Virus record (IMG/VR): IMGVR_UViG_3300017788_001394
Coordinates: 39,293 to 103,292 of that record
Source of the DNA: a virus
DNA length: 64,000 bases
Strand: one strand, 5' to 3'
The notes below the pieces were generated by a model, which worked only from the letters and a program-made list of their open reading frames with translations, made no database searches and had not been told where the DNA came from. Below, in pieces: positions 18,408 to 62,936 of the stretch; the stretch's first letter is position 1, and each line of letters opens with the position of its first letter. Position numbers and translations under genes: made by a program.

Positions 18408-18484
18408 AAAAAAATATTTATCTTGGTTAAATACTATTTTAATTATAAAAATACATTTTATTAAAGAATTGATTATCATAAATT

Positions 18485-19657
18485 ATGAAAAAAATTGCAA
18501 TTTATCTGACAGGACTGATCCAGGATCGAACACATGTGTTGCCTCATGTTAAGCAATCATTTGATTACATTGCTAAAGCCTTAGATTTAGAAATAGATTA
18601 CTATTGCCATTTTTGGGATACTTCAGTTCGTTATCCTTATACCATTGACGATACTGATTTAATAGTTGGTGTATCTTGTGAGAATAAAGAAAATATATCA
18701 ACTTGCATTGAAGTTTTTAATCCTGTTAATTATACTGTTGCATCATTTATGGATTATTTTCCACATTTTTTAAAAATTGTCAGCGTTGATCCCCATAATA
18801 CAGAAGGTTATTGTAACATTGAACATTTTTTTACATTTACATTCGATAATTTTGACATCAATTCAATAACAAATGTTGTGATAGATAAAAACTTTTTTTT
18901 AAATAACGAGTTGAACGGAATTGAAAATGCAGGGCATATATTTAATCAGTGGTGGGAACTGCATACATTATGGAGTACATTTGTATTAGAAGCATCTCAA
19001 GGCATTTCAATGTCAAACTGTAACAAAATGATAGTATCATCTGGAAAACAGTACGATGCTTGTTTTAAATCGAGATACGATTTGTTATTTAATTATAGTG
19101 ACTTAGATTTCTTAAACATCTTCAATAGTATATTAGAGTTAGCTGAACGTAATACGGATAGTGTTATTTTAGAATCGGTGTGGTTCAGGCCACCACCTCA
19201 TCATGAGGTGTTGGAATCTTGTTTTCCACATCAACTACAAATCGACAATGCAATCGACATACATGAGTTTGGTTGCACGTCAGATTTTTGGTGGGCACAC
19301 GATATGTCGACAGCACAGAAACTAGCAAATTCTCTATTAGATGATTACTGTAGTTCAATGGTGTTGCGTACAGCTAAATGGAACTCTCAACATGCGTATT
19401 ACTACAGGGCATTTAGAAAATCCAATTTAGTTGTTCGATGTCCTGCCGGGAAGTTGTCTACAGGTATAATCAGAAGTAATGTAGAAATACCAAAAAATTA
19501 TCATCTTAACACTACAGCGCATTTTACTTTACTAAATAATCAATTTCTAAATCGTGATAAAAGTGACGATTCTGAAAAATGTTATCATAGATCAGGAATA
19601 ACTGCAAAATATTACACTATAGGTCAATTTAACTTTGACATATTTAAGAAAAAATAA
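18485..19657 (+). CDS. Putative glycosyltransferase-like protein
   Basis: KIAIYLTG, YCHFWD, YDACFKSRYD, SDFWW; this pattern is seen in polysaccharide-locus proteins. Confidence 0.55.
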   Translation: MKKIAIYLTGLIQDRTHVLPHVKQSFDYIAKALDLEIDYYCHFWDTSVRYPYTIDDTDLIVGVSCENKENISTCIEVFNPVNYTVASFMDYFPHFLKIVSVDPHNTEGYCNIEHFFTFTFDNFDINSITNVVIDKNFFLNNELNGIENAGHIFNQWWELHTLWSTFVLEASQGISMSNCNKMIVSSGKQYDACFKSRYDLLFNYSDLDFLNIFNSILELAERNTDSVILESVWFRPPPHHEVLESCFPHQLQIDNAIDIHEFGCTSDFWWAHDMSTAQKLANSLLDDYCSSMVLRTAKWNSQHAYYYRAFRKSNLVVRCPAGKLSTGIIRSNVEIPKNYHLNTTAHFTLLNNQFLNRDKSDDSEKCYHRSGITAKYYTIGQFNFDIFKKK

Positions 19658-20297
19658 ATACTATTTTAAAAGGAATCATGACATTATGTTATCATCTGTT
19701 AAGTCGCATGTTGTTGAATCATTGCGAAATACTGTGATTGAGTTCAACAACTACGAATATTTGTGCATTAAAAATTTGTTTCCGGAAGATTTTTACAACG
19801 AGCTGAAATCATTATCGATGCAAGAAGCAAGTAAACGAGTCCATGAAGTTTTTATTAACGAAGGCTTTGTTAATTTATTATTTGAAAAATTTAATAAAAG
19901 TCCGAAACGTAGCACGTTAATTAAAAGTATATATGCATTCTGGCAGCAGCATGGTGTTGGGTATACACTTAAACCACATGTTGATAGCTTTCCCCGAGTG
20001 TTTACAATGACTGTGTATCTCGCCGATAACGACAATACTCCTAATGCTGGTACAGCAGTGTATGATGTTAATAGAAGCACTAAGGAGTATAAAACCATTG
20101 GAATGATGCCGTATTTGCGTAATAGCTGTATGATTATTTGTCCGTATGATAACTTAACATGGCATGGCGTAGATATGTTAGTCGACGACATAAAAAGAGA
20201 TAGTATTGTTGTTGTGTTTAGCGCACAAGAATGGAACGAAACCCAAATGCATTATGCAGATTGGAAGCCAGGAGTAACAGTTAATTATGGGATTTAG
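19635..20297 (+). CDS. 2OG-Fe(II) oxygenase (start may be 19686)
   Basis: HVD...TWHGV...R facial triad with AGT motif. Confidence 0.75.
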   Translation: MTYLRKNKYYFKRNHDIMLSSVKSHVVESLRNTVIEFNNYEYLCIKNLFPEDFYNELKSLSMQEASKRVHEVFINEGFVNLLFEKFNKSPKRSTLIKSIYAFWQQHGVGYTLKPHVDSFPRVFTMTVYLADNDNTPNAGTAVYDVNRSTKEYKTIGMMPYLRNSCMIICPYDNLTWHGVDMLVDDIKRDSIVVVFSAQEWNETQMHYADWKPGVTVNYGI

Positions 20298-20844
20298 TAA
20301 TAGTAGACAATACTTAGAGAAGTATAAAAATCTTAAAGACGGTTATTACGAATATCTAATAAATGGCACCACTCGTAACTTATATACTAAATTTGAAGAT
20401 AATAGTGGTTGGATTCAAGTTGTAGTAGTTGACTGGAATAACAGAGATCATGTTAATCGTGATGAAATAGTAAATGTTAAATTAAACGACCATGACATAA
20501 ACTTCTTGCGGTCTGACATATTCGATTATAATATAATGGCTAGTGCCGAGATCTTTAAGGAACCATTCAATGAATGGATACGCTATCCACACAACATGTA
20601 TGTTCACAAATCAATGATTGAATTTAATAGTATTTCGCTAGCATCAGATACTCCTAACAGTAATCTAGTTAGTATTGACTTAAACGCACCACCACTTGCA
20701 ATATACCAAGATACTCAAGACATTGGGTTCGGCGGCGGCAGCAGTGGTATAGGAGATACATTTTTTGCATATAGCAGAGAAGGACGTAACGGATTAGTTC
20801 AAAGTTTTTGCGGACCTGCAAGAGGTGCTGTATACGTTAGATGA
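20287..20844 (+). CDS. Hypothetical protein, weak fibrinogen-C-like N-terminus
   Basis: DGYYEYLING...LYTKFEDNSGWIQV. Confidence 0.4.
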   Translation: MGFSNSRQYLEKYKNLKDGYYEYLINGTTRNLYTKFEDNSGWIQVVVVDWNNRDHVNRDEIVNVKLNDHDINFLRSDIFDYNIMASAEIFKEPFNEWIRYPHNMYVHKSMIEFNSISLASDTPNSNLVSIDLNAPPLAIYQDTQDIGFGGGSSGIGDTFFAYSREGRNGLVQSFCGPARGAVYVR

Positions 20845-22010
20845 CTAAAATATTTTGCCCGCATGTTTATAATGCATTGGAGATATCCACAATCGGTAAA
20901 TTTAAGCCTTGCTGTATATCTAGTAAAACATTTAAAAACAACAGTAATGTTGATTTTTTTGCTAGTAAATCAACATTGAATGATGTATATCACAGCGATG
21001 ATAGAAAAGATTTCATTGATAACTTTGACGAATATTTCCCTACAGAATGCAGTCAATGCTATCAAGTTGAAGCAAGTGGCGGAGAAAGTAAACGGCTCAG
21101 GGAAATCAAATACTGGGAATTATATTACAACGGTATTGAACATGTACCTGAATTTACAAAAAGCCAAAGTCTTGAGGTACTGGATTTAAAATTAGGCAAC
21201 ACCTGTAACTTAGCATGTGCTACGTGTGATTCATATAGTAGTAGTAAGTGGAATAGCCTGTTTAAGGAATTTAACAGCGGGTTTGAAACTACTGTTACAC
21301 GCTGGCAAGACGATGATAAGTTCTGGAATGATTTGGTATTAAATCTGTCTAATATTAAGAAAATTGAACTAGCAGGCGGAGAACCGTTTTTAAATAAAAA
21401 ACAAAAGATCATGTTAAAATTTCTAGTAGACAACGACCTAGCTAAGGACATCGACATTACATGGATTACTAACTGCACACAGTACGACGAAGAAGTAATT
21501 AGTCTGTTTAAACACTTTAAACTTGTGCGAGTTATGATTAGTTTAGACAACACAGGTAAACAATTCGAGTATATGCGATATCCTGCTGTATGGGATGATA
21601 GTTATCAAATCTTTTTAAAGTTTTTAGAACTTAAAAATGCAAATTTAATTAACTTAGGAATTAGTCATACTATTAGCTTGCTTAACATATATCATTTGCC
21701 TGATATGTGGGAATTTGCAAGAAAACATAAAGTAATGTTGTTTAACAACTTAGTTATGTGGCCATTCCATTGTAGAAATTTACCAGAGGATTTCAAGCAA
21801 ACAGTTAAAGCCAGACTGGAAGCAGTAAGCGACTCTAGTTACCAGCTTAATCCAGCCAATGGTAAAAACAGTTGGCTAGTAGAATTTATGTTGCAATCCA
21901 ACGAAAATGATAGTATAATGGAAAGAATGAAGGCTCATTTGAGATTTGTTAACAGGACCAGGCAGGACTTGTTTGAAGATGCGTTTCCTGAACTAGCAAG
22001 TATTTTATAA
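20841..22010 (+). CDS. Radical SAM protein with N-terminal twitch/SPASM-like domain
   Basis: FCPH...PCC...CSQC; CNLACATC; AGGEPF. Confidence 0.9.
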   Translation: MTKIFCPHVYNALEISTIGKFKPCCISSKTFKNNSNVDFFASKSTLNDVYHSDDRKDFIDNFDEYFPTECSQCYQVEASGGESKRLREIKYWELYYNGIEHVPEFTKSQSLEVLDLKLGNTCNLACATCDSYSSSKWNSLFKEFNSGFETTVTRWQDDDKFWNDLVLNLSNIKKIELAGGEPFLNKKQKIMLKFLVDNDLAKDIDITWITNCTQYDEEVISLFKHFKLVRVMISLDNTGKQFEYMRYPAVWDDSYQIFLKFLELKNANLINLGISHTISLLNIYHLPDMWEFARKHKVMLFNNLVMWPFHCRNLPEDFKQTVKARLEAVSDSSYQLNPANGKNSWLVEFMLQSNENDSIMERMKAHLRFVNRTRQDLFEDAFPELASIL

Positions 22011-22012
22011 AC

Positions 22013-22870
22013 ATGAAAGAAAGAAAATATATAAATTGGCGCAGCGGTATTAAACGTAGAATTTTAATAATAGGCGATCAAAATCTATTAGGTGACTACA
22101 GTTTAGAAGGTAAACTCGTAGGTTATAAAAGCTGGGCATGGCATTTAAAAAAACAACTTAACGAAGATCATCATATCTATACTTTACCGTTACCTAATTG
22201 CAGTTTTACACAAGTAAATGCAATATTAGAATATCTCAGAGATAGTGGTCTTCTTGATATCTTTACCCATTGTATTGTCAGTTTACCTGCAGATAACAGT
22301 CAAACATTGTTTACATCAGACGCTGACGGTTATTTTAACGCACTGTCCACTTTTATATTAACCGATCGTTTCTTAAAATATGATTTATATGATGGCAAAG
22401 AACTGTATGATAGATTCTTAGAACCACATATTATGTCAACAAGTGCATCATATTCTAAAAACAATTTAGATAATAGTGTTAGTTATTCGGTTTTTAACAA
22501 ACATTTATTCTCTGTAAATTACGCCATGTTATTAGATATATTGAAGTCGAGTAATGTTGTTCCAATATTATTTGATCTTGAATCAAGGCCAGTTGCACAA
22601 TATCAACAAATTCACACAATAAGAAAACGAGAAGATTTAAATCTATACCCCAACAATTCGTATGCATTTACCGAACCCGACGGTGTATACTGGTCAGCTA
22701 TAGAGATGATAAAGTGCATCGATTTTGATAGAGACTTTAATATCAACAATAACAACACATTCACCGCCGACGACCAATGGGTTCTTGCTAAAACATTGTA
22801 CAAAGTTTTAGCTGATAAACTAATACTTGATTGGATAATAGAGGATAAAAAAAAAAAAGGTAAATCATAA
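22013..22870 (+). CDS. SGNH-hydrolase-like protein, catalytic residues apparently lost
   Basis: IIGDQN instead of GDS; shares SWAWHL and YTLP with the next gene. Confidence 0.5.
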   Translation: MKERKYINWRSGIKRRILIIGDQNLLGDYSLEGKLVGYKSWAWHLKKQLNEDHHIYTLPLPNCSFTQVNAILEYLRDSGLLDIFTHCIVSLPADNSQTLFTSDADGYFNALSTFILTDRFLKYDLYDGKELYDRFLEPHIMSTSASYSKNNLDNSVSYSVFNKHLFSVNYAMLLDILKSSNVVPILFDLESRPVAQYQQIHTIRKREDLNLYPNNSYAFTEPDGVYWSAIEMIKCIDFDRDFNINNNNTFTADDQWVLAKTLYKVLADKLILDWIIEDKKKKGKS

Positions 22871-23680
22871 ATGAAAGATAAAGTATTGTGTATAGGATGC
22901 AGCCATTTAGCAGGTGCATACGATAAAGATGATATAGTCGTTAGCAACGAGTCATGGGCTTGGCATTTATGGAAACGTAGAGGAAAGAATGAAATTTTTT
23001 ATACGTTGCCAAGCCCAGGTCAAGGTCTGATGCAGTATGGTGCATTAATAGAAACTCTAAAAAATAAAAACAAACTAAGTCAATTTAAGTATGCCATAAT
23101 ACAGTTAACATCCGAACCTAGAATTAATTGGTATGGCGGGTTACCTCAAAATTATTATTTTTCAATATTGCCACACTTTGTTGATAACAATGAAAATGGG
23201 TTTAACGATGGACAAACAATGTATACTAAGTATGCAAGAAGTATTGTATTATCATCTGACTTTAGAAAAATGTACGAAATACACGAAGGAAAATTTGTTT
23301 CTCCGGATTCTAAAAATGCTTGGTTGGATATTAGCGAACAGCTTTATGAGTCATTTAATAAAAGTGTACTGTCGCAATCATTATTTCCTATCTATATGAA
23401 ATATATTACTGATACGTTAAAAGAACACAATATAACGCCAATCATATTCGATTGGTGGGGTAAAACGGTCGAACAATGGCAATTGATTGATAATCTGAAT
23501 ATACATGATAATATATTGTTTGTCAGGAAATCTATTAAACAGATTCTAATAGATAACAATTTGTGGAACAGAGAAGAGCAAAGTATCGGTGGTCACTTTA
23601 ACAGTATTCAAAATAAAGCTGTTACGAAATTTTTGCATAAAGAAATTATTGAAAAAGGTTTAATGCCTGACTATGAATGA
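22871..23680 (+). CDS. SGNH/GDSL hydrolase-like protein
   Basis: IGCSH block I, IIQLT..R, C-terminal GGHFN. Confidence 0.6.
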   Translation: MKDKVLCIGCSHLAGAYDKDDIVVSNESWAWHLWKRRGKNEIFYTLPSPGQGLMQYGALIETLKNKNKLSQFKYAIIQLTSEPRINWYGGLPQNYYFSILPHFVDNNENGFNDGQTMYTKYARSIVLSSDFRKMYEIHEGKFVSPDSKNAWLDISEQLYESFNKSVLSQSLFPIYMKYITDTLKEHNITPIIFDWWGKTVEQWQLIDNLNIHDNILFVRKSIKQILIDNNLWNREEQSIGGHFNSIQNKAVTKFLHKEIIEKGLMPDYE

Positions 23681-24845
23681 ATCCTTTTGTGTTGCACCAT
23701 GGCTACACATGCATGTAGAACCAACTGGCGATGTTCAACTGTGTTGTGCAAGCAATTGGAAACATGATTTCAACCGTAGCTTAGGAAACTTAAACGATGC
23801 ATCTCCGTTAGAAATATGGAACAATGAACAATATAGATATGTAAGAGCAAACATGATTAAAGGCAATATGTTAAAAAAATATTGCAGTCCGTGTTATCTT
23901 AGAGAAAATGGTGCAGTTAATCAAACCGAACGTCAACGACTTAATAAGGAATTTCCTTTAGGTTATGAACTAGCTAAAGAAACAAATGCAGATGGCAGTT
24001 TAAACAAGTTAGACATACGATATCTCGACATACGTTTTAATAATTTATGTAATTTAAAATGCAGGACATGTGGCCCAGACTGGAGCACAAGTTGGGCAAA
24101 CGAGATGGGTATTGAAAAACCATTGCACTATAATAACTCCTGGAAAAAACTAATACCGTATCTGGGCAATTTAGAAAAAGTATATTTTGCAGGAGGTGAG
24201 CCAATGATGACCGCAGAGCATTATGATTTCTTAGAGTTACTATTAGATACAAACCCTAATGTAGAATTACTATACACTAGTAATTTTACAAGATTGGAAC
24301 TCAAGGGCAGACATGTAATGGACTATTGGCCAAGGTTTAAACTTGTAAATGCAGTAGCTAGTATTGACCATTGCAATGAATACGCAAGTTATGTCAGAAC
24401 TGGAAGTGATTATAACGTAGTCAAGAATAACTTTTTAGAAATAAAAAATCAAAATTTACACAATGTTAGAGCAGGTGTAACTAGTGTACTAAGTTTGTAT
24501 AATATTACTAAAATAGGTAGCTTCATAACACAGTTGTTTGAAGATAAAATTTTAGATAATATGGATCAAATTGTTTTCAACCTATTAGTAAACCCTAATT
24601 ATCAAAACGCTTTGATTATGCCAGAAGAATCGTTGCCTACGGCATTGAATAGTATCGAATTATGTGAACAGTATTTGCATAATTTAGTAATAGATTCATC
24701 TAAGTTAAATAATATTAAAGAATGGTTAACTAATAATCATAATTATGATGAAACTTTATTTAAAAAATTTATCTACTATAATAAAGAATTAGATCGTAAA
24801 CGTAATACAAACTTTGAGTTGTTATATTCGGAGTATAATGTGTGA
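23673..24845 (+). CDS. Radical SAM protein with N-terminal twitch domain
   Basis: FCVAPW...LCC...LGNL...CSPC; CNLKCRTC; AGGEPM. Confidence 0.9.
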   Translation: MNESFCVAPWLHMHVEPTGDVQLCCASNWKHDFNRSLGNLNDASPLEIWNNEQYRYVRANMIKGNMLKKYCSPCYLRENGAVNQTERQRLNKEFPLGYELAKETNADGSLNKLDIRYLDIRFNNLCNLKCRTCGPDWSTSWANEMGIEKPLHYNNSWKKLIPYLGNLEKVYFAGGEPMMTAEHYDFLELLLDTNPNVELLYTSNFTRLELKGRHVMDYWPRFKLVNAVASIDHCNEYASYVRTGSDYNVVKNNFLEIKNQNLHNVRAGVTSVLSLYNITKIGSFITQLFEDKILDNMDQIVFNLLVNPNYQNALIMPEESLPTALNSIELCEQYLHNLVIDSSKLNNIKEWLTNNHNYDETLFKKFIYYNKELDRKRNTNFELLYSEYNV

Positions 24846-26074
24846 TGTCGAATATCCCTGATAATTTTTGTTCGGCTCCGTGGAGTGCAGTGTATGTGGA
24901 TCCGGTCGGTTATGTCGGACCTTGCTGTATATATCGTATGGATGACGAAACAGCATACGGTAATTTAAACAACGATTCAATGAGTAATATAGTTAACAGC
25001 GATAACGCAAGAAAACTAAAATTACAGCTCATTAATAATGAACGACCCGTCGGATGTAACAACTGCTGGGAAAGCGACGATAAAAATTTAACAAGTTTCA
25101 GACATTCTTGGAATGAACGAGACAATAAACAAATTGAAGATTTTTTGAATTATACTAGCAACACAGGGGATTATAATTATTCAAACATAAATTACTGGGA
25201 TATACGACCTAGTAATTTATGTAATCTAGGTTGTATTATGTGTACACCGACACTTAGTTCTGGGGTGTGGCAACTATACTCTGACTTAGGAATGTTAGCA
25301 AAAGATAACGTAAAAAAATTTAAAAAAATGAGCGAAGATGATATCAATTTAACATTGCAATACATCAAAGAAAAAGTATCAGAAAATCATAGTAACGGAA
25401 TAAATGATCATTTTTATTTTGCAGGTGGCGAACCGTTGATTATGCCAGAGCACAAAAAAATTATCGACATGTTAGAGCAGGAAAACTTTTATCATGTCTC
25501 ATTACGATATAATACAAATTTAACGTCAGTTGTGTTTAAAGATATTAATTGGTTAGATAAGTGGAAAAAATTTCAGAACGAAATAATTATCGATGCATCG
25601 ATTGACAGTACAGGAGACACTGCTGGCATACAACGATTCGGAACTGACTGGAATGTGATTAAGAACAATTTAAAATTAATTGCTGCTAGTGATAATATTA
25701 AAATAACATTTAACATTGTAGTATCTATCTTAACTTACCCTGTATTAATAGATACACTAACCGAGTTAGAAGAAATATTCGGTAACGAATATCTGAGATA
25801 CTGTGTAAAATTGACACCGTTACAATACCCTGAATTCTTATGTTTAAACAGTATAACAGATAATCATATTGACTATTCTATAATACATAAAGTAAATGAA
25901 ATGGGCTATAATGTCAGTGAGTTAGGATCTTTGTTAAGAAATAGAGAAAAATTCGTTACACAGCATGATATGCGATCGATCGCCACTGCTCGTAATAAAC
26001 TGTTTAACAGATTATATAAAATAAAAAACATAGATGTAAGAAATATACTACCCTGGTTTGTATTAGATGAATAA
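24845..26074 (+). CDS. Radical SAM protein with N-terminal twitch domain
   Basis: FCSAPW...PCC...YGNL...CNNC; CNLGCIMC; AGGEPL. Confidence 0.9.
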   Translation: MSNIPDNFCSAPWSAVYVDPVGYVGPCCIYRMDDETAYGNLNNDSMSNIVNSDNARKLKLQLINNERPVGCNNCWESDDKNLTSFRHSWNERDNKQIEDFLNYTSNTGDYNYSNINYWDIRPSNLCNLGCIMCTPTLSSGVWQLYSDLGMLAKDNVKKFKKMSEDDINLTLQYIKEKVSENHSNGINDHFYFAGGEPLIMPEHKKIIDMLEQENFYHVSLRYNTNLTSVVFKDINWLDKWKKFQNEIIIDASIDSTGDTAGIQRFGTDWNVIKNNLKLIAASDNIKITFNIVVSILTYPVLIDTLTELEEIFGNEYLRYCVKLTPLQYPEFLCLNSITDNHIDYSIIHKVNEMGYNVSELGSLLRNREKFVTQHDMRSIATARNKLFNRLYKIKNIDVRNILPWFVLDE

Positions 26075-26183
26075 CGAAAACGTCAGAACAATGTCTGGGC
26101 ACCTTAATGCCATTGGTTACGAGTTATTTGCACAATATGTATATGAGTTACTTACAGCAAAAATAGCAAAGAAAAATGAGTAA
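26067..26183 (+). pseudogene. 38-aa ORF resembling an orphan SGNH hydrolase C-terminus
   Basis: MNNENVRTMSGHLNAIGYELFAQYVYELL matches block V (H.N..G...A); overlaps both neighbours. Confidence 0.45.
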
Positions 26184-27561
26184 AATTAAACCAATTTGGA
26201 ATCATGACGGTAGCTGTTCAAACGACAGTCCTAATAAAGTTTTCTGTATGGCACCATGGTCACATACATATATTAGTCCGCAAGGAGAACGTCGTCTGTG
26301 CTGTGCTAGTCGTGAAGAACACAGTTTTCAAAAACAATATATTGACGCTAGCAATGACGAAAAATACGGCGCTGTAAAAGAGTCTAAGACCAGTGCAGAT
26401 GAGTTTAATCCGCTAACATTAGAAGAGCATTGGAATAGTCCATATATGCGTGATATACGCAAGAAATTAATGGCAGGCGAGCGTATTCCACAATGTGATG
26501 TTTGTAATGATGATATACTTAGTATAAGCAGTTATCGTAAATGGTTTACAGGTGTGTTGTTTAGAGATAAAATCGAACAAGCGTTTGATAATACAGACGA
26601 CGACGGATATACATCTATGCCTGCTATATCGTTCGATTATCGATATAGCAATTTGTGTAACTTTAAATGTCGTATGTGTGGAGAGCAACTTAGTAGCAGT
26701 TGGGAATCAGAAAAAAAGAAACACGACTTGTGGACTCCAAAAAATCAACCGTTTATGATACCCGAAGTCAAACAAAAAATGACACTGTTTCAGCGTAACG
26801 TAGTTGAGCCAGAATTTAAGAAAGCAATCAGTGATGGCATTGTAGAAGAGATTTATTGGGTCGGAGGCGAGCCTTTAATGTATGATATACATTGGTGGGC
26901 ATTAGAAGAAATGATACAAAACAACAGTGCTAGAAACTGTTACTTAAGATACAATTCCAACTTGTCACGAATCGAATACAAAGGCATGAATTTGTTCGAC
27001 TACTTACCGCAATTTAAAAATTGGTTAATGTGTGCAAGTATCGACGGCACAGGACATATTGTAGAATTTATCCGTAAGGGTATTGTTTGGGAAGAGTGGT
27101 TAGCAAACTTTAAAACAGGATTAGCAGCACCCCACGGAAAAGATAGGATGTTATTTGATTTAACAATAACAGGCCCCGGCATGTTTGCACTTAAAGATTT
27201 GTTTGATTTGTCGAGAGAATTAGATGTAAGAATCGAAACAAAAATAATGTTTGCTTTTCACCCCGACATTGTGTTTAGTCCGTTTGCTTGGCCCAAACAC
27301 ATACTAGATCGTAAAATAGATCAATTATTAAACTATATGGACCCGATAGCAACACATAAACAGCTATCTCTTGTTAACACACTTAAGGAAATGAAAAAAC
27401 GTCCAACCTTTGCAGAACAATGGCCTGACACACATAAGCAGTCATTTATTAACGGTCGAGGCTGGCAACAAAAATTAGACACGATACGCCAAGAGCAGTA
27501 TCGATTAGAAGATATATATAAAGAAGATAACGAATTATACAATTGGTGGACACAAAATTGA
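26176..27561 (+). CDS. Radical SAM protein with N-terminal twitch domain
   Basis: FCMAPW...LCC...CDVC; CNFKCRMC; VGGEPL. Confidence 0.9.
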   Translation: MSKIKPIWNHDGSCSNDSPNKVFCMAPWSHTYISPQGERRLCCASREEHSFQKQYIDASNDEKYGAVKESKTSADEFNPLTLEEHWNSPYMRDIRKKLMAGERIPQCDVCNDDILSISSYRKWFTGVLFRDKIEQAFDNTDDDGYTSMPAISFDYRYSNLCNFKCRMCGEQLSSSWESEKKKHDLWTPKNQPFMIPEVKQKMTLFQRNVVEPEFKKAISDGIVEEIYWVGGEPLMYDIHWWALEEMIQNNSARNCYLRYNSNLSRIEYKGMNLFDYLPQFKNWLMCASIDGTGHIVEFIRKGIVWEEWLANFKTGLAAPHGKDRMLFDLTITGPGMFALKDLFDLSRELDVRIETKIMFAFHPDIVFSPFAWPKHILDRKIDQLLNYMDPIATHKQLSLVNTLKEMKKRPTFAEQWPDTHKQSFINGRGWQQKLDTIRQEQYRLEDIYKEDNELYNWWTQN

Positions 27562-28823
27562 CAGCAAATAACTACAAGTGGCACTATTTAAATAGTGCAG
27601 AAGCTAATCCAATGTACGAACAAATGGCTAGTTTTATTAAGGAGAATGACTGTAAAACTGTTTTAGATATCGGATGCGGGTTTAGTAGAATCAATGAGTT
27701 TTTAACCAATGATTATTCGATAAATGGTCTAGATTCTGATATAGATTGCATAAATTATTGTTTGGAAAATCATTCAGGAAAGTATGTAATTGGCGATGTC
27801 ACTGCCATAGAAAAATACACCGAGCTCGGCACACATTACGATGCTATTGTGTTAAGTGGTATACTATATTATTTTGGTAAAGGCGATATGCCAACTGTCG
27901 AAGACTACGTTGACAGGTTGATTAAACTGTATAGCCCCAGAATAGTTATAGTATGCGAACCAAGGCCTAGTCTTGTTTATATAAGTCCAAACTTTACTGA
28001 GTTACTAGACAGATATGCATACGTTGCAAAACAATTCGATATGAAAATTCGAATGGGAAACAGAATTGTTTATTGTTTATACACAGACAGAAATCGTCCT
28101 GAGCGCAAAATAAAAGCAGAATTCAATGAACACTCGGAACTATATAATCATATTAAACAAAGTGACTTTGATACTAATCGATTGAAATATAATGTTTATC
28201 TCACCAATACAGAAAACATATCAAACGACAGAGACGGCGAATTATTTCCGCAAAATGTAAATAATTATCATTATATAAGTGTTGCAGCTGGATTTAAAAG
28301 TTTGTTTAAAGCAGTAATAGATTGGGAAGCCCACAAAGAGTTTAAATTTATATATGTTGATGTTGTTCCTACTGCATTAGATTACCGAATGTTCTTTGAT
28401 TTTAAACTTAAGCAAAACAGTAAAATATCATTCAATGAAATATATAACTTGTATGTCAGTGAGATAAACCCAAATATTATTCCCATATATGGAACGAATA
28501 ACGTTGACATAGATGAAACAGTAAAAATGCAATTAAAAGAACTCGACATTGACTTTCAACACTGGCAAGACTTTATTGCTGCATATAGTCAAATTGAAAA
28601 AACATATATCAAATTGGATGCAGTTAATAATATAAAACTTCTTAAAAATCTTATAAATTCGTGTACAGATGATAATCTAAAATGGTTTTGGTATAGTAAT
28701 ATGTTTGATTGGCACCAATTTAGATTTAAAGAACAAACATATTATCGATGGGTTAAATACTTAGATAATAATATAAAAGGCTTAAAATTGAATGGTCACA
28801 CCCCGCCGTTTACTACTTCATGA
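27543..28823 (+). CDS. SAM-dependent methyltransferase with additional C-terminal domain
   Basis: VLDIGCG, GLDSD, YDAIVLSGILYY; second Rossmann-like segment ISVAAG...YVDV. Confidence 0.75.
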   Translation: MVDTKLTANNYKWHYLNSAEANPMYEQMASFIKENDCKTVLDIGCGFSRINEFLTNDYSINGLDSDIDCINYCLENHSGKYVIGDVTAIEKYTELGTHYDAIVLSGILYYFGKGDMPTVEDYVDRLIKLYSPRIVIVCEPRPSLVYISPNFTELLDRYAYVAKQFDMKIRMGNRIVYCLYTDRNRPERKIKAEFNEHSELYNHIKQSDFDTNRLKYNVYLTNTENISNDRDGELFPQNVNNYHYISVAAGFKSLFKAVIDWEAHKEFKFIYVDVVPTALDYRMFFDFKLKQNSKISFNEIYNLYVSEINPNIIPIYGTNNVDIDETVKMQLKELDIDFQHWQDFIAAYSQIEKTYIKLDAVNNIKLLKNLINSCTDDNLKWFWYSNMFDWHQFRFKEQTYYRWVKYLDNNIKGLKLNGHTPPFTTS

Positions 28824-29613
28824 TATTATATTCAGATATTGCCAGTTCGTAAGTCAAGCAGTAATAGGTGTGTATGTCCATGATATTATTAATATAGGTC
28901 TTGATAGGCTAGCAACAAACATATCAAACGACATTTTTTCTGACCCGGCATGGGAACATATAGAACAGTCGAGCGAGAATTTAATATTTAAAAGAAATTC
29001 TTTCAACCTGTGCATTATAACTACATATCGAAAATACAAAGTTTTCATCGGCACAAACGCAGTGATAAGCAATGTTAACTTCTTATACGCAGCTGACATA
29101 TTTAAAGATAATTTAGCAATAAAAACAACAAATGTGTTTTACAACAACTTCTCGTATAGGGTTGAGTGTAGTGATTTTATACCGGGCATTACAATATCTC
29201 AATTCTTAGAAGACGACCAAGAAGGCGAATCATTGGAAAAATTTAGGGATGCAGATGTATTATTAACTACTGTTGCAAATTATATAGGAAAGAATTTTTA
29301 TATAGACAGTGACGGATTTGTGTTATACCCGTCAGATTTACAAAGTACTAACTTAATACTGACCAATCTAGATACTGATCCAGAAATTATATTAATAGAT
29401 TTTGATCACATTATTAAACAACCGTATGAACGGATGTATACAGATGTAGCTAACAGATTTTTTACTCATATATCTAAATACAATTTTGACAGTAAACGTT
29501 TTCCGGTCAATTCGATACAACCATTCTGGAAACACCATTTATTAACACATACTATAGACGAAATTAAAACTGATTTTATAAAGAGAATTGACAATGCAGT
29601 TAGAAACAAATAA
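28792..29613 (+). CDS. Protein-kinase/APH-like fold protein
   Basis: DFIPG, SDLQSTNLIL, LIDFD. Confidence 0.55.
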   Translation: MVTPRRLLLHDIIFRYCQFVSQAVIGVYVHDIINIGLDRLATNISNDIFSDPAWEHIEQSSENLIFKRNSFNLCIITTYRKYKVFIGTNAVISNVNFLYAADIFKDNLAIKTTNVFYNNFSYRVECSDFIPGITISQFLEDDQEGESLEKFRDADVLLTTVANYIGKNFYIDSDGFVLYPSDLQSTNLILTNLDTDPEIILIDFDHIIKQPYERMYTDVANRFFTHISKYNFDSKRFPVNSIQPFWKHHLLTHTIDEIKTDFIKRIDNAVRNK

Positions 29614-30811
29614 CCCATATTTTTGTATACTACCATGGATACATATGCACATATGGCCAAATGGCACAACTTATCCCTGCTGTCTATCAACTAACGATTA
29701 CAAACTAGGAAATACAAATGATAGTAGCTTCTTAGAAATATGGAACAGCGATAAAATGAGATCATTGAGAACAAATGTTCTCAACGGTAAGCCAACATCT
29801 GGTTGTGCAAGGTGTTACGAGCATGAAAAAAATGGCGCAAGAAGTATGCGAATAAATCTTAACCGAGACTATGAGCATTATTTTGATCGAACCAAGTTAA
29901 CTAAAGAAAATGGTAGTTTAGACGAAATATTCATGGCTTATATGGATATTCGGTTTAGTAATATTTGTAACTTTAAATGCAGAACATGTGGTCCAGAGTT
30001 AAGTAGCTTCTGGGTCGACGATGCTGTTAAGATGAATCGCTATTCGTCGACGCAACCTAAAATACTTAAAATCAAAAATACATTAGAAGAACTGTGGCAA
30101 GATATGGAGCAGTGGATAGACACTGTGGAAAAGATTTACTTTGCAGGCGGCGAGCCATTAATAATGGACGAACATTATAAAATATTAGAATATCTTATTA
30201 AGATAGGAAAAACTAATATTAACATATTTTACAATACTAATCTAAGTAAATTAAAATACAAAAATAAAGATATAATCGAATTATGGAAACAGTTTAGTAA
30301 AATCAGTGTCGGTGCAAGCATAGACGGTATGAATGGTCGTGCTGAATACATAAGAAGCGGAACAAGCTGGTTCGATATTGAAAAAAATAGAGAGCTGTTA
30401 CTCACTGAATTGCCTGAAGTAGAGTTTCACATAACTTCTACTATAAGCGCATATAATGCAGAACACTGCCCCGACTTTTTCAATAATTGGATTAATAAAG
30501 GTTTTATTAGTGCAACTGATATAGATTGCAATGTGCTGCTGTATCCGGAATTTCAACGAGCACAAGTGTTACCAGAGTACAAAAGAAAAATGATACAAGA
30601 AAAATATCTGCAATTTATATCAGATCATAAATTAAAAGAAATGGTCGCTGCCCAACATCGTTATGTTAGTTTCAAAGCAGTTGTGGATTCGTTAAATGTA
30701 GACAAGTCAAACTTACTTCCTCAATTTGTTGAATACAGTAAACGGCTAGACAAAATAAGAAATGAACATTTACCGGATATCTTTCCGGAATTAAGGTTCA
30801 TGTATGAGTAA
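29594..30811 (+). CDS. Radical SAM protein with N-terminal twitch domain
   Basis: FCILPW...PCC...LGN...CARC; CNFKCRTC; AGGEPL. Confidence 0.9.
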   Translation: MQLETNNPYFCILPWIHMHIWPNGTTYPCCLSTNDYKLGNTNDSSFLEIWNSDKMRSLRTNVLNGKPTSGCARCYEHEKNGARSMRINLNRDYEHYFDRTKLTKENGSLDEIFMAYMDIRFSNICNFKCRTCGPELSSFWVDDAVKMNRYSSTQPKILKIKNTLEELWQDMEQWIDTVEKIYFAGGEPLIMDEHYKILEYLIKIGKTNINIFYNTNLSKLKYKNKDIIELWKQFSKISVGASIDGMNGRAEYIRSGTSWFDIEKNRELLLTELPEVEFHITSTISAYNAEHCPDFFNNWINKGFISATDIDCNVLLYPEFQRAQVLPEYKRKMIQEKYLQFISDHKLKEMVAAQHRYVSFKAVVDSLNVDKSNLLPQFVEYSKRLDKIRNEHLPDIFPELRFMYE

Positions 30812-32006
30812 CACTTTTTGCCCGTTATTATTTCAACACTTAGCAACGCATCCCCACGGCGGTGTTACTCATTGCTGTATCGCCGATCACCGAAATGCAT
30901 TAAGCAGTGCAAGAGATGTGACCGATACCGGACACAACTACTATAACTTAAATCGTAATACAGTTAGTGATACATTTAATAGTGAAAGTTTCCGAACAGC
31001 TCGATTGCAAGTGTTAGAAGGTAAAAAGCCACAAGCATGTTTAAGATGCTATAGCGAAGAAGCTAAAGGCATAAGAAGCAAGAGGCTAGAAGAAATCGGA
31101 AACTATCCTGATTATACACTAGATATAGCTAAATCTGTTACAGATAATAATGGTTACATACAAAATATACAATTTGATTTTGTTGAATTGCGTCTGGGTA
31201 ACGTTTGCAATGTTGCGTGTAGAACATGCAATCCTGCAAGTAGCAGTAAGTGGCGCAATGATTATGACAAACTACAAAGTTCTTTGCCGTTTTCTATTAC
31301 AAACTACGATACGATCGAGGGATTCAGGTGGCCTGAACGTGAAGCATTCTGGGAAGATTTGTTACAACATTGTAATAACGTAAAGACATTTTACATTAAC
31401 GGCGGCGAGCCTACACTAATTAAACAACATTTTAAGTTTTTAGAACGTCTGGCTAGTATGGGCAGAACTGATGTTAAACTTTGGTATAACATTAATATGA
31501 CTAACATGAACGAAGAAATAATAGAAGTTTGGAAAAAGTTTGATAAGGTTAAAATTAGTTGCAGCATAGATGATTTAGGTTCGAGAAACGAATACATACG
31601 TTATCCCACTAAGTGGGACGATGTAATGCGTAATTTTTTGAGGTTAAAAGAAGAAAATTTTGAATTAGATGTTACACAAACTGTATCATTTATGAATTAT
31701 AGCAACTTGACCGAATTTTATAACTTTTTTCACAATGAACACAAGGTTTGGGTTCATCATAACTTTGTATATGATCCTGATATTTTAAGTCCTGGTGTAT
31801 TACCTAAGGAGATCAGAGATAAAATACATGCACGTATGCACAACATTTTCGAGCCATGGCAAGTAAATATGTTTGTTAACATGTATAACAATGCAGATAA
31901 CAACGAAAAGTGGAGTCGTGCGGTAGCATATACTAAATCATTAGACAGAATACGCAATCAATCGATCGTTAACGCTTTGCCTGAATTCGAACATATAATA
32001 AAGTAA
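30804..32006 (+). CDS. Radical SAM protein with N-terminal twitch domain
   Basis: FCPL...HCC...CLRC; CNVACRTC; NGGEPT. Confidence 0.9.
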   Translation: MSNTFCPLLFQHLATHPHGGVTHCCIADHRNALSSARDVTDTGHNYYNLNRNTVSDTFNSESFRTARLQVLEGKKPQACLRCYSEEAKGIRSKRLEEIGNYPDYTLDIAKSVTDNNGYIQNIQFDFVELRLGNVCNVACRTCNPASSSKWRNDYDKLQSSLPFSITNYDTIEGFRWPEREAFWEDLLQHCNNVKTFYINGGEPTLIKQHFKFLERLASMGRTDVKLWYNINMTNMNEEIIEVWKKFDKVKISCSIDDLGSRNEYIRYPTKWDDVMRNFLRLKEENFELDVTQTVSFMNYSNLTEFYNFFHNEHKVWVHHNFVYDPDILSPGVLPKEIRDKIHARMHNIFEPWQVNMFVNMYNNADNNEKWSRAVAYTKSLDRIRNQSIVNALPEFEHIIK

Positions 32007-32022
32007 AAAGTGCATATGCCCC

Positions 32023-33504
32023 TTAAACTCCTAGCGTATCTGTTTCTGTATTCCACCCTCCGGTGCCTGCTACAATGTCGTCGTTTAAATAATGTTCTGT
32101 CGTTGCAGGGTCTATTGCGGATGTAATACTAGGGACAACTATATCCGGGTTGTAAGATATGCTATCGTACCATTCTACAAATGTAGGAAATGCAGCACGG
32201 AAATCTTTGTTACGTCTGATGTCATACTGCTCATAGAAATAACGGAAGTCATTATATAACTTAGGTGTTTCTGCTGTATTGCGATGTGGCGTTTTAACAA
32301 CGTCTAAATAATCGATCAGTCGTTGAACATGTGCAACTTCACCCTGACTTAAAAACTCTTGTTTTGTTGGTAACCAATCTTCAAGTTTTTTCTTAAAAAT
32401 TGCTTTCAACTCTACCGGCAATATCGCAGCACTTTGGAAACTAGGAAAGCGCAATATGTTGAGTGTCATAGTAGGAGCACGAAATCCGTATTCTTTTCTA
32501 AGCTCTAACATGTCGTCCATAAATTCAGTTATAGACTCTAAACACAAACTATTAATAGTCATCATACAATGTAATTCTTTAACGTTAGATTCCTCTAACA
32601 ACCTTACAATGTTACTACGCCAGATTTTGTAATCAAACCCGTCACGGGTATATTCGTTTTGTGTCGCTGCACATTCAGCACTGGTATATATTTCAAAATT
32701 TTGTATGTCAAAACTTGCGTCTATTAGTTTTTGAAACATGCGCTCATTTTCGGGAACAAGATTGCTATTGATAGCAAAACGCATAGTGCTTGTTGGGTTG
32801 TCACGAAACCAATCAAACAGTTTCCAAACAGACTTATGCATTAATGGTTCGCCGCCTGTGATTCGGATTTCTTCTAGTTTATCACTAAGACCATTTTCCC
32901 ACCACTTCCAAAACGCAATAATATATGGATTGTCTTCTTCATGCAATGTTTTACGTGCAGCCCAGGGCGCAGTATCGATAAAGTGCCCACGTCCATCACT
33001 TTGGATATTCATGTAAGGACCTTTATCTTTAATGTCTTTAACCCATGTGCTGCTGAATGCAGGATTGCAATAACTACATGCAAAGTTACATGCACGGTCA
33101 AACGCAATTTCGAGTGTTCTTAATGTGACATCTTGATCCCATGGCGTAGTAACACACGCTTTTACATCTTCGTCACTGAATATTTGCGTTTTATAAACAC
33201 GGTCGCTAATGTTGTTTCGTCCAATATCTTCCACTTTCCAACAATATTCGCATTCTTGTGGACGCTCACCTTCCTGCATCATTTTACGCATAAGTTTTTT
33301 GTGTTTAGTGTTATGAATAGCGGTAGGATTAATCATTAATTCATCGGTTGGGATCCAATGTCCTGGTGGATGGTGACAGCTAGTAGTTTGACCATGACCC
33401 AGCCATATTGTAGCATTGTACCACTTAGCTGCACAAAAACTTTTACTTATCGGATCAATTATGCGTTCTTTATATTCGTGATAACTTTCATTATTTTTTT
33501 TCAT
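32023..33504 (-). CDS. Radical SAM protein with N-terminal twitch-like domain (CHHP variant)
   Basis: FCAAKW...SCHHP...CEYCW; CNFACSYC; TGGEPL. Confidence 0.9.
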   Translation of the reverse strand: MKKNNESYHEYKERIIDPISKSFCAAKWYNATIWLGHGQTTSCHHPPGHWIPTDELMINPTAIHNTKHKKLMRKMMQEGERPQECEYCWKVEDIGRNNISDRVYKTQIFSDEDVKACVTTPWDQDVTLRTLEIAFDRACNFACSYCNPAFSSTWVKDIKDKGPYMNIQSDGRGHFIDTAPWAARKTLHEEDNPYIIAFWKWWENGLSDKLEEIRITGGEPLMHKSVWKLFDWFRDNPTSTMRFAINSNLVPENERMFQKLIDASFDIQNFEIYTSAECAATQNEYTRDGFDYKIWRSNIVRLLEESNVKELHCMMTINSLCLESITEFMDDMLELRKEYGFRAPTMTLNILRFPSFQSAAILPVELKAIFKKKLEDWLPTKQEFLSQGEVAHVQRLIDYLDVVKTPHRNTAETPKLYNDFRYFYEQYDIRRNKDFRAAFPTFVEWYDSISYNPDIVVPSITSAIDPATTEHYLNDDIVAGTGGWNTETDTLGV

Positions 33505-35072
33505 GTTTTGTTACTTTCGTTAAAATGTTTATAGCAATCGTTCCACCAGTTTCCTAGTTCGGGAAAAACTTCAGGGAACTTAGTGTTTCTTCTTTGATCA
33601 ATTTGATTAAAATATAACCAGAACTGTTTTTTTCTTCTAGCTATCTCTGCAACAGAAAGCTCTGTTTTTCCGTTTTTGATCCAAGCAATGTCTCTTTTAA
33701 GTTTAGCGATTTCGTAGTGCTTGAACCCATGATACGTTCTGCCATAGTGTTCATTTTCTACATTATTTTCCATGAAAACTAAACAATCTTCTAACATAGA
33801 AATAAGTTCAGGATAAAACGCTGCATTTTGTGCGCTCATCCATTCTGGCTGACGAAGATATGGAATATCGAACCAAACTCGCTGGCGACGTTTTCTAACA
33901 AAAGGAGGATGCACAAAACCGTTACGGTCGGGAGGTTGTATAACATGATCTGTTTGATTTTCATAACCAAATTCTATACGCAAATCTAAAATCATTTGCA
34001 AAAATTCTTTAAGACGAGGAATACTTAGTAAGTTAAATGTGTTAATAAAACTTATCTCTGATCCATGTGTTTCTTTCATGAATGTTTTAATATTTTTCAT
34101 CATACGTTCGTAATTGAGACCTGTTCTGATATATTCCGCTTGTTCACCTGTACTATCTAAGCTAATGAACAAACTAAAATGTTTACATGCAGGGGCCACA
34201 TACCAATTATTACCGCTATCTGGGTTAAACTTTTCTTTATCTTCCCAAATTCTAACTTCCTCGATAGCTTTTAGTTTTTTAATAAATTTATCGAATAAAC
34301 GTTGATCAGGTGGACACATATTACTAGTTATACTTAAGTCTAATGTAGAATTTGGATTTTTGTTAACATAATCTAATACTCTAAATGTATTTTTATCCAT
34401 TAGAGGTTCGCCGCCGGTCATACGAAAAACTTTCAAATCCTTATACAAATCAGGCCACCAGTCCCAAAAGGCCTCTACATAAGGATTATCTTTATTACTA
34501 GAATTGATAGGCATTAACCCCGCAGCAGATAAACTTTTAATATCGTTATGTTTAAAGTTGTCGCCGAGATCATACGGGCCATAATCTTCGATTTCTTTTT
34601 GCCAAGATGTGCTTAAATGAGGACTGCAATATGTGCATTTAAAATTACATGCTTGATTGAAATTAACTTCAACATATCTTGGATTAATGTTGTTGTCCCA
34701 CCCGCCGTCTATTACTTCGTCCCAACCATCTTGTGCCCATACTTCGCTGCTACGATAATGCCTATCGCTTAAATGGGGTCCATCGGGAGCGTCTTCGATA
34801 TTCCAACAATATTGGCATCCAGCTGGACGTTTACCTTGCCACATATCTCTGCGTTGTTTTACTTTTTCCATTGTATTGTGCAACGCTTTAGGATTTACTT
34901 CTAATTCGTCTAAAGGAATTTTGTGTGTTGGCGGATGGTAGCAGCTTTGCGTTAATCCTGATGTTAAATGCATACTGACTTGCAACCATTTAGCCATACA
35001 CATAGTAGAACTAATCTGATTTAACTTGTCTTTAGTTTTTTTTGCTTCTTCGAAGTAATCAAGAGCTGCCAT
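33501..35072 (-). CDS. Radical SAM protein with N-terminal twitch-like domain (CYHP variant)
   Basis: MCMAKW...SCYHP...CQYCW; CNFKCTYC; TGGEPL. Confidence 0.9.
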   Translation of the reverse strand: MAALDYFEEAKKTKDKLNQISSTMCMAKWLQVSMHLTSGLTQSCYHPPTHKIPLDELEVNPKALHNTMEKVKQRRDMWQGKRPAGCQYCWNIEDAPDGPHLSDRHYRSSEVWAQDGWDEVIDGGWDNNINPRYVEVNFNQACNFKCTYCSPHLSTSWQKEIEDYGPYDLGDNFKHNDIKSLSAAGLMPINSSNKDNPYVEAFWDWWPDLYKDLKVFRMTGGEPLMDKNTFRVLDYVNKNPNSTLDLSITSNMCPPDQRLFDKFIKKLKAIEEVRIWEDKEKFNPDSGNNWYVAPACKHFSLFISLDSTGEQAEYIRTGLNYERMMKNIKTFMKETHGSEISFINTFNLLSIPRLKEFLQMILDLRIEFGYENQTDHVIQPPDRNGFVHPPFVRKRRQRVWFDIPYLRQPEWMSAQNAAFYPELISMLEDCLVFMENNVENEHYGRTYHGFKHYEIAKLKRDIAWIKNGKTELSVAEIARRKKQFWLYFNQIDQRRNTKFPEVFPELGNWWNDCYKHFNESNKT

Positions 35073-36049
35073 TAAATACTATCTATAACCTCAGTTTCAC
35101 GAATCATTGCACCTGTTCTAGCAGGATTTTTATAAGTTGTTTTAAAGAAGCGACTACCGGTCCAATCTAAATCAGCGATTTCAAGATCAAGATTACTTCT
35201 TAATTCATTACCAAGTCTTACTGTTTCTGCTTTTAATTTGATCGGATCCCAACTGTATCCTGTACGTGGACAAAGTTCTGTCCCATCTTCAAACTGGGGC
35301 GCTAATTCTGTGTTAAAGTAATTGCTTAACCAATCAAAGTCTCTAACGTTTTTCCAGTCCCATTCATGACGCAATATGTTTGTCATATAGCATCCCAATC
35401 TTGCGCCGTATACAGCCCACAATCCGTTTGGTGCATCTTCGCCTACGCTCATCCAAACCAACAAACGCTTATAGTTTTCTCTATGAATTTTCTTAAGTTT
35501 ACTAGGATCGACTACATCGCCGTTTTCTAATCCCATTTTTACACCTTCACGGAAACCAGCACGCCATGCTTGCAACGGACTGCCGTTGTTGTAGACATGA
35601 CTATACCAGTTATTCATTTGAACGTAGTGAATATTCCAACAGAAATCTACTTGCGCCCGCTTATCAGTAGGAGGTGCTGCTTCGTGTGTTCGCATACGCA
35701 TCACTACATCAACCGGCCAACATTTAATGCCGCCGTTGCCGTAAATTAAACCGTTAATTTGATTTCGTGCAGCCCAGCTAATAACATCATTACTACGAAC
35801 TTTATCCATATTGATTTCAACATTAAAAAAATCTTCGTTGACAATGTTGTCAGCATCAATTGTAATAAATCGTTCAGTTTCACTTAGTGCAGCGGCTGCT
35901 TTGTGTGCAGCATCACTGCCCCAAACACCGTGACTACGTTTAGCCCAAGGACATTTTGTTAATAAGTCTGCATAGTTTTCATCTGCATTAGGCTCGTCGT
36001 AGCTAATGTAGACAATATCAAAATCGTTAATACTTACCAGATTTGACAT
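35072..36049 (-). CDS. Glycosyltransferase-like protein (GT-A fold)
   Basis: ISYDEPNA, GSDAAHKAAA, TIDADN, YGNGGIK, AWRAGFREG; paralog of 8575-9288. Confidence 0.7.
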   Translation of the reverse strand: MSNLVSINDFDIVYISYDEPNADENYADLLTKCPWAKRSHGVWGSDAAHKAAAALSETERFITIDADNIVNEDFFNVEINMDKVRSNDVISWAARNQINGLIYGNGGIKCWPVDVVMRMRTHEAAPPTDKRAQVDFCWNIHYVQMNNWYSHVYNNGSPLQAWRAGFREGVKMGLENGDVVDPSKLKKIHRENYKRLLVWMSVGEDAPNGLWAVYGARLGCYMTNILRHEWDWKNVRDFDWLSNYFNTELAPQFEDGTELCPRTGYSWDPIKLKAETVRLGNELRSNLDLEIADLDWTGSRFFKTTYKNPARTGAMIRETEVIDSI

Positions 36050-42007: not shown

Positions 42008-42015
42008 TATTTATA
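42008..42015 (-). promoter_or_regulatory. Late promoter motif TATAAATA
   Basis: Exact T4 late consensus just upstream of 41393-42001. Confidence 0.55.
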
Positions 42016-62911: not shown

Positions 62912-62936
62912 AAAAAATAAATCTAAGGAATTTTTA

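Follow-up and report, generated by a model that had tools for sequence, protein, structure and literature searches.

In previous studies, SPASM and twitch domains have been described as C-terminal extensions of the radical SAM core; the auxiliary cluster of BtrN is held by four Cys, and BtrN carries out the two-electron oxidation of an aminocyclitol, and in MoaA three ligands leave an open iron site that binds the substrate (PMC9012708). In phages, a 183-kb T4-like environmental marine genome with 12 radical SAM genes has been reported (Nishimura 2017, PMC5332604), and radical SAM cassettes of pelagimyophages lie in a hypervariable host-recognition cluster beside tail fibers and glycosyltransferases (Zaragoza-Solas 2020, PMC7029224). 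The DNA analyzed in this work is a stretch of 64,000 nucleotides (hereafter the window, to which all coordinates refer unless stated), corresponding to positions 39293-103292 of the 103,292-bp IMG/VR record IMGVR_UViG_3300017788_001394 (hereafter G000). At 20841-35072 it carries an array of eight paralogous radical SAM genes whose products have the twitch domain ahead of the core. Judged by profile scores, this array is an unusually large instance (14 copies in the whole record) of a catalogued, functionally uncharacterized family, NF033640, and it is a tractable target for pathway discovery, not a new kind of system.

Both phage reports concern large myovirus genomes rich in radical SAM genes, as is G000, although neither assigned these genes to an N-terminal-twitch family, recognized orthologous subtypes among them or linked them to bacterial arrays. 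Those marine phages are T4-like, whereas G000 is a freshwater phage with a baseplate resembling that of Atu_ph07 and PA5oct-type jumbo phages. Its baseplate wedge is 37-40% identical to the counterparts in Atu_ph07, SCTP-2 and PA5oct, and the record also encodes baseplate hub proteins, a gp55-like late sigma factor and a structural giant of 3,692 amino acids (aa). Completeness was estimated at ~28% by CheckV, and a sequencing-run index searched with the segment 29588-33504 located near-identical DNA in freshwater and riverine metagenomes. Therefore, the record is a fragment of an uncultured freshwater jumbo myovirus; megablast against cultured phages returned nothing related. For the array itself we favor, with moderate confidence, the explanation that its products act in one pathway for tailoring a carbohydrate or glycan by BtrN-like radical chemistry, linked to GT-A-like genes and to the tail-fiber operon.

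Membership of the array in a curated family

The eight open reading frames (ORFs) predicted at 20841-35072 by an earlier first-pass annotation were all recovered, with products of 389-523 aa, and each of them matched the NCBIfam model NF033640 ("N_Twi_rSAM, twitch domain-containing radical SAM protein") with 254-402 bits and E-values of 1e-62 to 1e-123, the curated cut-off being a whole-protein score of 170 bits. Radical SAM models other than NF033640 scored below 45 bits on the same ORFs, and matches to NF033640 above the cut-off were absent from all 14 control genomes. Since all eight exceed the cut-off, the N-terminal-twitch architecture highlighted earlier is already the defining feature of a curated family (an N-terminal four-Cys domain followed by CxxxCxxC), from which the array genes show no structural difference; multi-copy arrays are also found in bacteria, with up to 11-12 copies per genome. 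The array size of eight holds for the window, but in the whole 103-kb record 14 genes exceed the cut-off, including six upstream of the window (C1:25497-38444), and about five additional radical SAM genes outside NF033640 accompany them. The first-pass annotation had named clustering with a characterized single-function family as the outcome that would speak against it; it is true that one curated family holds all the paralogs, but no functional study or characterized member of NF033640 was found in the literature, so that only half of that outcome was observed. The genes of the array are given below, with percentages of identity to their orthologs in two related phage contigs (G001 and G002, in this order) that were used for comparison with G000.

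20841..22010, plus strand: N_Twi radical SAM paralog, 389 aa; NF033640 261 bits; orthologs 60% (G001) and 57% (G002)
23673..24845, plus strand: N_Twi radical SAM paralog, 390 aa; NF033640 301 bits; orthologs 62% and 63%
24842..26074, plus strand: N_Twi radical SAM paralog, 410 aa, lineage-specific; NF033640 254 bits, over model positions 2-338 only
26176..27561, plus strand: N_Twi radical SAM paralog, 461 aa, core subtype; NF033640 322 bits; phage orthologs 78% and 81%
29588..30811, plus strand: N_Twi radical SAM paralog, 407 aa, core subtype nearest the family consensus; NF033640 402 bits
30804..32006, plus strand: N_Twi radical SAM paralog, 400 aa, core subtype; NF033640 351 bits; orthologs 75% and 76%
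32023..33504, minus strand: N_Twi radical SAM paralog, 493 aa, core subtype in which SC-H replaces CC; NF033640 300 bits; orthologs 65% and 78%
33501..35072, minus strand: N_Twi radical SAM paralog, 523 aa, core subtype; NF033640 297 bits; orthologs 61% and 69%

The core subtypes have close relatives well beyond these phages. The protein of 26176-27561 is 51% identical to the product of a gene in a chromosomal Bdellovibrionota array, and that of 32023-33504 shares 51-54% identity with two genes of that array; the 33501 type usually adjoins the 32023 type, and the pair recurs in phage and bacterial arrays. The clade of 30804-32006 (support 1.0) includes bacterial members, and 29588-30811 has more than 6900 homologs at E<1e-10. 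The database homologs closest to the array proteins include one with 87% identity (P0001). By contrast with these core genes, the lineage-specific 24842-26074 has no reciprocal ortholog in G001 or G002 and stands isolated in the tree. Upstream of the window, genes for two nitroreductase paralogs and for a QueC-like PP-loop protein, the latter between two of the copies, lie with other genes among the six further N_Twi paralogs at C1:25497-38444. Because most of these six copies are without orthologs in the related phage contigs, the upstream half of the island is its variable part.

Cysteine motifs and fold of the N-terminal domain

An alignment of all 14 copies of the record, numbered after 29588-30811, revealed four invariant Cys in the N-terminal part (C13, C32, C73 and C76, each in 14/14 copies) ahead of the equally invariant SAM-cluster Cys C127, C131 and C134, which the window proteins keep in the form CNxxCxxC. 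S139, G187-G188-E189, N218, S244 and R256 are also invariant, S..W and GGEP are retained in all eight window proteins, and the signatures of the radical SAM superfamily (CxxxCxxC and the GGE SAM-binding motif) are present in every copy. The motif C-x~15-CC...CxxC of the first-pass annotation is thus right as to the four N-terminal Cys and needs correction in its details, since the CC doublet is missing from three copies, which have SC-H or SC-Y, and the first spacing is x18. Pfam places SPASM at residues ~6-110, and Radical_SAM behind it at ~118-300, in six of the eight window proteins.

When a profile of the 29588 subtype was compared with the sequences of the PDB, positions 6-79 aligned with residues 164-240 of BtrN (4M7S) at a modest E-value of 0.002, and the four invariant N-terminal Cys coincided (4/4) with the C...C...CxxC of the C-terminal twitch domain of this enzyme. 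On this alignment, the N-terminal domain is homologous to the BtrN C-terminal twitch domain, and the earlier suggestion of an N-terminal (permuted) twitch domain holds. BtrN is a 2-deoxy-scyllo-inosamine dehydrogenase (PDB 4M7S/4M7T) of the same SPASM/twitch core-fold class, with a homologous twitch and a single, fully Cys-ligated auxiliary cluster. The differences are that its twitch domain is C-terminal and that of the phage proteins N-terminal, that the sequence similarity is marginal, and that BtrN has ~250 aa against the 389-523 aa of the phage proteins, which carry an extra helical C-terminal region. The canonical C-terminal placement of the auxiliary-cluster domain, as in BtrN, MoaA and anSME, was not observed here. 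Because the four Cys align while the domain is N-terminal, members of NF033640 would combine BtrN-like cluster ligation with a reversed domain order.

The AlphaFold2 model of 29588-30811 (mean predicted local distance difference test, pLDDT, 86), in which the helical C-terminal region is seen, gave effectively tied scores in VIA-align with BlsE (Z 12.6), anSME (12.1), MoaA (11.8) and SkfB (11.7). Foldseek returned TM-scores of ~0.4, with SkfB, CteB, anSME, SuiB and ChlB among the nearest folds. Among the Foldseek and VIA matches there was no solved structure of a family member, only generic radical SAM cores that give no clue to the substrate. The peptide-acting enzymes in this list, together with the fact that peptide maturases make up the majority of characterized SPASM/twitch enzymes (PMC9012708), would speak for a modification of proteins or peptides, such as formylglycine formation, thioether or carbon-carbon cross-links or epimerizations, in virion proteins (for example the neighboring tail fibers) or in an unrecognized precursor of a peptide made on ribosomes and modified after translation (RiPP). 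The core block also adjoins the tail-fiber genes and may share a late promoter with them. However, the four conserved Cys found outside the SAM cluster in the 14 copies indicate a single auxiliary cluster, and the seven-Cys SPASM motif for two auxiliary clusters, the pattern typical of RiPP maturases such as AlbA, SkfB, PqqE and SuiB, is absent; neither Pfam nor NCBIfam detected a leader-binding domain of the RiPP recognition element (RRE) type, and neighboring genes touch or overlap with a single exception, a 100-bp gap, so that there is hardly room among them for precursor-peptide ORFs; a precursor encoded farther away or a protein substrate may exist. The bacterial neighbors of the family, described below, are moreover a kinase, an NTP-transferase, glycosyltransferases, SGNH proteins, a sulfotransferase and a carbamoyltransferase. 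We therefore consider a peptide or protein substrate improbable and return to the carbohydrate pathway as the preferred explanation. The first-pass annotation had left the choice between sugar and peptide substrates open, and of the two it is the sugar that fits the context better (NTP-transferases, GT2 and GT-A-like proteins, kinase, SGNH, carbamoyltransferase), not peptide cross-linking.

Divergence, orthology and the recurring set of subtypes

Pairwise identity among the 14 copies ranges from 16 to 34% (median 22%) with the SAM-cluster Cys kept in every one of them, in agreement with the strong divergence noticed in the first reading of the sequence. Reciprocal best hits gave a 1:1 ortholog in each of the contigs G001 and G002 for seven window paralogs (all but 24842-26074), at 57-81% identity, which equals or exceeds the conservation of genes taken for comparison in the same phages (59% for the baseplate wedge and 45% for the giant fiber protein). 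The conserved block reaches from 19635 to the tail genes, and its position beside the tail module is kept in all three phages. Between orthologs, nonsynonymous divergence (dN) was 0.12-0.40; synonymous divergence (dS) was saturated, at 1.6-3.9, or undefined for most pairs, and dN/dS was ~0.1 where it could be computed. Relaxed selection, for which the first-pass annotation had proposed a dN/dS check, was not seen, and these estimates indicate that the array orthologs are under purifying selection. In a tree of 187 sequences the G000 paralogs fall in separate clades shared with other phages and bacteria, and related IMG/VR contigs hold 8, 12, 5, 6 and 4 family members. Taken together, the paralogs are ancient and individually conserved, which fits distinct and maintained roles over relaxed selection. 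A recent burst of duplicates was rejected, since the paralogs stand in separate clades with orthologs elsewhere, and so was an array of decaying copies, since the catalytic residues are all retained.

The family is large, and its members usually come in sets of 4-14 diverged paralogs. A search with the 14-copy profile retrieved 8,805 clusters (50% identity) at E<=1e-30. Members were present in 31 of 151 sampled Bdellovibrionota genomes, with up to 11 copies each, at 7-12 copies in other bacterial genomes, and also in Bacteroidota, Elusimicrobia, Legionellales and some Firmicutes, often as tandem arrays. When each copy was assigned to the subtype of its nearest G000 paralog, a recurring set became apparent, in which the 33501, 32023, 29588 and 26176 types, and often the 30804 type, are found together in phage and bacterial arrays. 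Since the same subtypes co-occur recurrently, they probably form one multi-step sugar-tailoring pathway and do not act on unrelated substrates. Of the earlier proposal that each paralog acts on a different position or substrate, the distinct and maintained roles are consistent with the 1:1 orthologs and purifying selection, and the part concerning unrelated substrates is not. That the enzymes work together also fits the natural tandem fusions, many proteins of 790-1,400 aa having two or three N_Twi units (P0276-P0312). At one Elusimicrobia locus (L027) there are five long fused ORFs.

On a closed 2.66-Mb Bdellovibrionota contig, an array whose members are 33-54% identical to the phage subtypes lies next to BipA and Dus and has, between its members, genes for an APH-like kinase, a MobA-like NTP-transferase, a GT2 protein (PF00535) and three GDSL/SGNH proteins. 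A Crocinitomicaceae chromosome carries, beside its family copies, a GT1/GT4-UbiA-GDSL fusion, a sulfotransferase, PhyH and a carbamoyltransferase homolog. Among 145 bacterial neighbors, the families seen most often were PhyH dioxygenases and other radical SAM genes. Three loci on TMED/MED contigs of metagenome-assembled genomes (MAGs), of 14-18 kb and binned as Betaproteobacteria, Verrucomicrobia and Rickettsiales (L025, L030 and L033), contain homologs of the phage GT-A-like and tail-adjacent genes and are probably mis-binned phage fragments.

Members also exist in cultured Vibrio phages, which are tractable entry points to the family. KVP40.0261 and the genes 0303, 0305 and 0306 of Vibrio phage K566 gave full-length matches to the 14-copy profile and have C...CC...CxxC before CxxxCxxC; they differ from G000 in being only 22-26% identical to its copies and in numbering one to three copies instead of 14. 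Their annotations go no further than "radical SAM domain-containing" or "MoaA/NifB/PqqE family", and the literature yielded no functional study of them. In KVP40 (132073-141152), the genes flanking 0261 encode a HAD protein, a second radical SAM protein (0260), a PF04095 protein and a QueC-like protein. The product of 0260 matches the profile at positions 50-332 only, so that most of the twitch domain is absent.

The QueC-like neighbor of the KVP40 member parallels the QueC-like gene that lies between two upstream copies of G000, and both, with the generic similarity of the array proteins to MoaA, viperin and QueE, could point to a hypermodification of phage DNA or nucleotides against host restriction. 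Nevertheless, no DpdA/TGT, DNA glycosyltransferase or hydroxymethylase was detected among the genes scanned, scores against the families of nucleotide-acting radical SAM enzymes stay far short of the respective cut-offs, and the neighbors of the bacterial chromosomal arrays are GT2, SGNH proteins and a kinase instead of genes of DNA metabolism. This explanation seems to us very improbable, and the same bacterial neighbors agree with the carbohydrate pathway.

Phage neighborhood and the proposed pathway

The genes and the promoter motif around and between the radical SAM genes are as follows.

17144..18479, minus strand: MobA-like NTP-transferase and HAD phosphatase; Pfam NTP_transf_3 7e-9 and HAD_2 1.7e-19
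19635..20844, plus strand: two conserved partner genes, 220 aa and 185 aa; orthologs 47-61% in G001 and G002
22013..23680, plus strand: two paralogous proteins, 285 and 269 aa, between radical SAM genes; hhalign probability 100% to each other
27543..29613, plus strand: 426-aa protein with a methyltransferase-like N-terminus and 273-aa protein; Methyltransf_25 E 5e-4, below cut-off
35072..36064, minus strand: GT-A-fold protein, 330 aa, probable glycosyltransferase; directly downstream, in window coordinates, of the minus-strand radical SAM pair
36027..39109, minus strand: four conserved genes, 335, 289, 300 and 115 aa, between the GT-A-like and tail-fiber genes; orthologs 42-64% in G001 and G002
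42008..42015, minus strand: TATAAATA motif (T4-type late promoter consensus), heading the string of minus-strand genes that ends with the two radical SAM genes

The 330-aa protein of 35072-36064 is the neighbor that most directly concerns a glycan. Its AlphaFold2 model (pLDDT 77) had only GT2-type glycosyltransferases as top Foldseek matches, the matches including the peptide S-glycosyltransferase SunS and the PBCV-1 capsid glycosyltransferase. VIA gave Z 10.3-9.2 to GT-A glycosyltransferases over residues 8-160, and D70-A71-D72 is invariant (DxD). It has at least 8000 metagenome homologs, the best 120 of them at 70-98% identity. No Pfam match at E<=0.01 was obtained for it and none was precomputed for its homologs; by sequence it does not belong to a CAZy or Pfam glycosyltransferase family. 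No link between this protein and the other ~300-aa proteins was detected by hhalign.

The 220-aa partner gave a weak Pfam match to 2OG-FeII_Oxy_3 (E 6.5e-4, below cut-off). The pair of 22013..23680 had no match in Pfam or PHROGs, and for 22871-23680 the matches in the Atlas were virus-only "hypothetical" clusters. The 426-aa protein has reciprocal best hits of 45-50% identity to ~2.3-kb ORFs (~750-765 aa) in G001 and G002; the 273-aa protein finds the long ORF in G001 at 24%, not reciprocally, and a separate gene in G002 at 33%, reciprocally. Among the genes of 36027..39109, which had no Pfam, PHROG or PDB match, 36997 and 37866 are paralogous to each other (hhalign 99.9%). A 300-aa radical SAM protein of the conventional type, with a C-terminal SPASM, lies at 12470-13372 (minus strand) beside a class I/II aminotransferase and a HAD-like protein; with the N-terminal-twitch genes, one island thus contains both domain orders. 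The same island holds an unusual phage cargo, a sodium:solute symporter at 4160-5638 (minus strand; Pfam SSF, E 1.5e-21), which may import a precursor.

The island also encodes methyltransferases, a carbamoyltransferase and a class I/II aminotransferase. The two latter, with the nitroreductases, the QueC-like ATPase, the symporter and the BtrN-like auxiliary cluster, would also suit the synthesis of a free small molecule, aminocyclitol- or aminoglycoside-like or lipid-derived, that serves as antibiotic, signal or host-manipulating metabolite during infection and is not attached to the virion. In a cyanophage, contiguous genes for an AHBA-synthase-like protein, an inosamine-amidinotransferase and a radical SAM protein have been described (PMC12801897), and genes for acyl carrier protein (ACP), ketosynthase and acyltransferase accompany the family in Paenibacillus and Eubacterium. 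We regard such a pathway as possible but doubtful: in three phages the conserved core and the tail module stay joined, no exporter lies beside this core, and the arrays of phages and bacteria alike have GT-A-like or GT2 genes as an integral part, which speaks for a transfer of the product onto an acceptor.

The transcription signals may also connect the radical SAM genes with the tail. On the minus strand, one string of genes leads from tail genes via the GT-A-like gene to the radical SAM pair. The TATAAATA motif is depleted in the window (6 sites against 13.75 expected), and the sites at 968, 11452 and 42008 are just upstream of gene starts; the gp55-like late sigma factor is encoded at 62883-63812. 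This placement is consistent with use as late promoters by the gp55-like sigma factor and suggests late expression of the string. Scans for sigma-70 promoters and terminators gave counts at the level of shuffled sequence.

Based on these results, we propose that each enzyme would make a 5'-deoxyadenosyl radical and abstract one specific hydrogen atom, and that the electron of the substrate radical would pass to the fully ligated auxiliary cluster, the chemistry being a two-electron oxidation as in BtrN or a redox-coupled rearrangement related to it. A single carbohydrate-type substrate, which may be a sugar activated by nucleoside diphosphate (NDP), a cyclitol or a glycan, would be acted on by the subtypes in turn, each at a specific position. 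This substrate would be built and transferred by the neighboring nucleotidyltransferase, phosphatase/kinase and GT-A-like glycosyltransferases, and methyl-, carbamoyl- and amino-transferases and 2-oxoglutarate (2OG) oxygenases may decorate it further. Speculatively, the most likely product is a glycan on the surface of the virion or of the infected cell, since the conserved core is contiguous, and partly co-oriented, with tail-fiber and baseplate genes. A more specific version, in which the conserved subtypes, the GT-A-like genes and the NTP-transferase build a heavily radical-tailored glycan that is attached late in infection to the tail fibers or baseplate of the phage itself, we consider unlikely as a whole; it would amount to a virion glycosylation system dependent on radical SAM enzymes, which horizontal transfer would have made common to the phage and to the surface-glycan clusters of Bacteroidota and predatory Bdellovibrionota.

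Several observations weigh against the carbohydrate pathway. The BtrN alignment is modest, and the fold matches, tied across sugar-, peptide- and nucleotide-acting enzymes, do not identify the substrate; no substrate of any NF033640 member was found in the literature. The GT-A assignment of 35072-36064 relies on a fold Z of ~10 and the DxD, with the nucleotidyltransferases MobA and IspD close behind at Z 8.3-8.9. Most of the interleaved phage genes have no family detectable by Pfam, PHROGs or phmmer against the PDB. In bacteria, the Paenibacillus and Eubacterium contexts are the ACP, ketosynthase and acyltransferase clusters mentioned above, not glycan clusters, and many of the "bacterial" loci are MAG contigs that are possibly mis-binned phage DNA.

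Even so, the subtypes that travel together beside nucleotidyltransferase and glycosyltransferase genes turn the vague statement that phages have many radical SAM genes into a defined and testable pathway hypothesis. Should the product prove to be a glycan of the virion or of the cell surface, it would matter for how phages recognize their hosts and for novel radical chemistry on carbohydrates. Within the tail module itself, the 3,692-aa giant (42011-53089, minus strand) has BLAST-detectable similarity to the adjoining baseplate wedge of 1,180 aa (53086-56628, minus strand).

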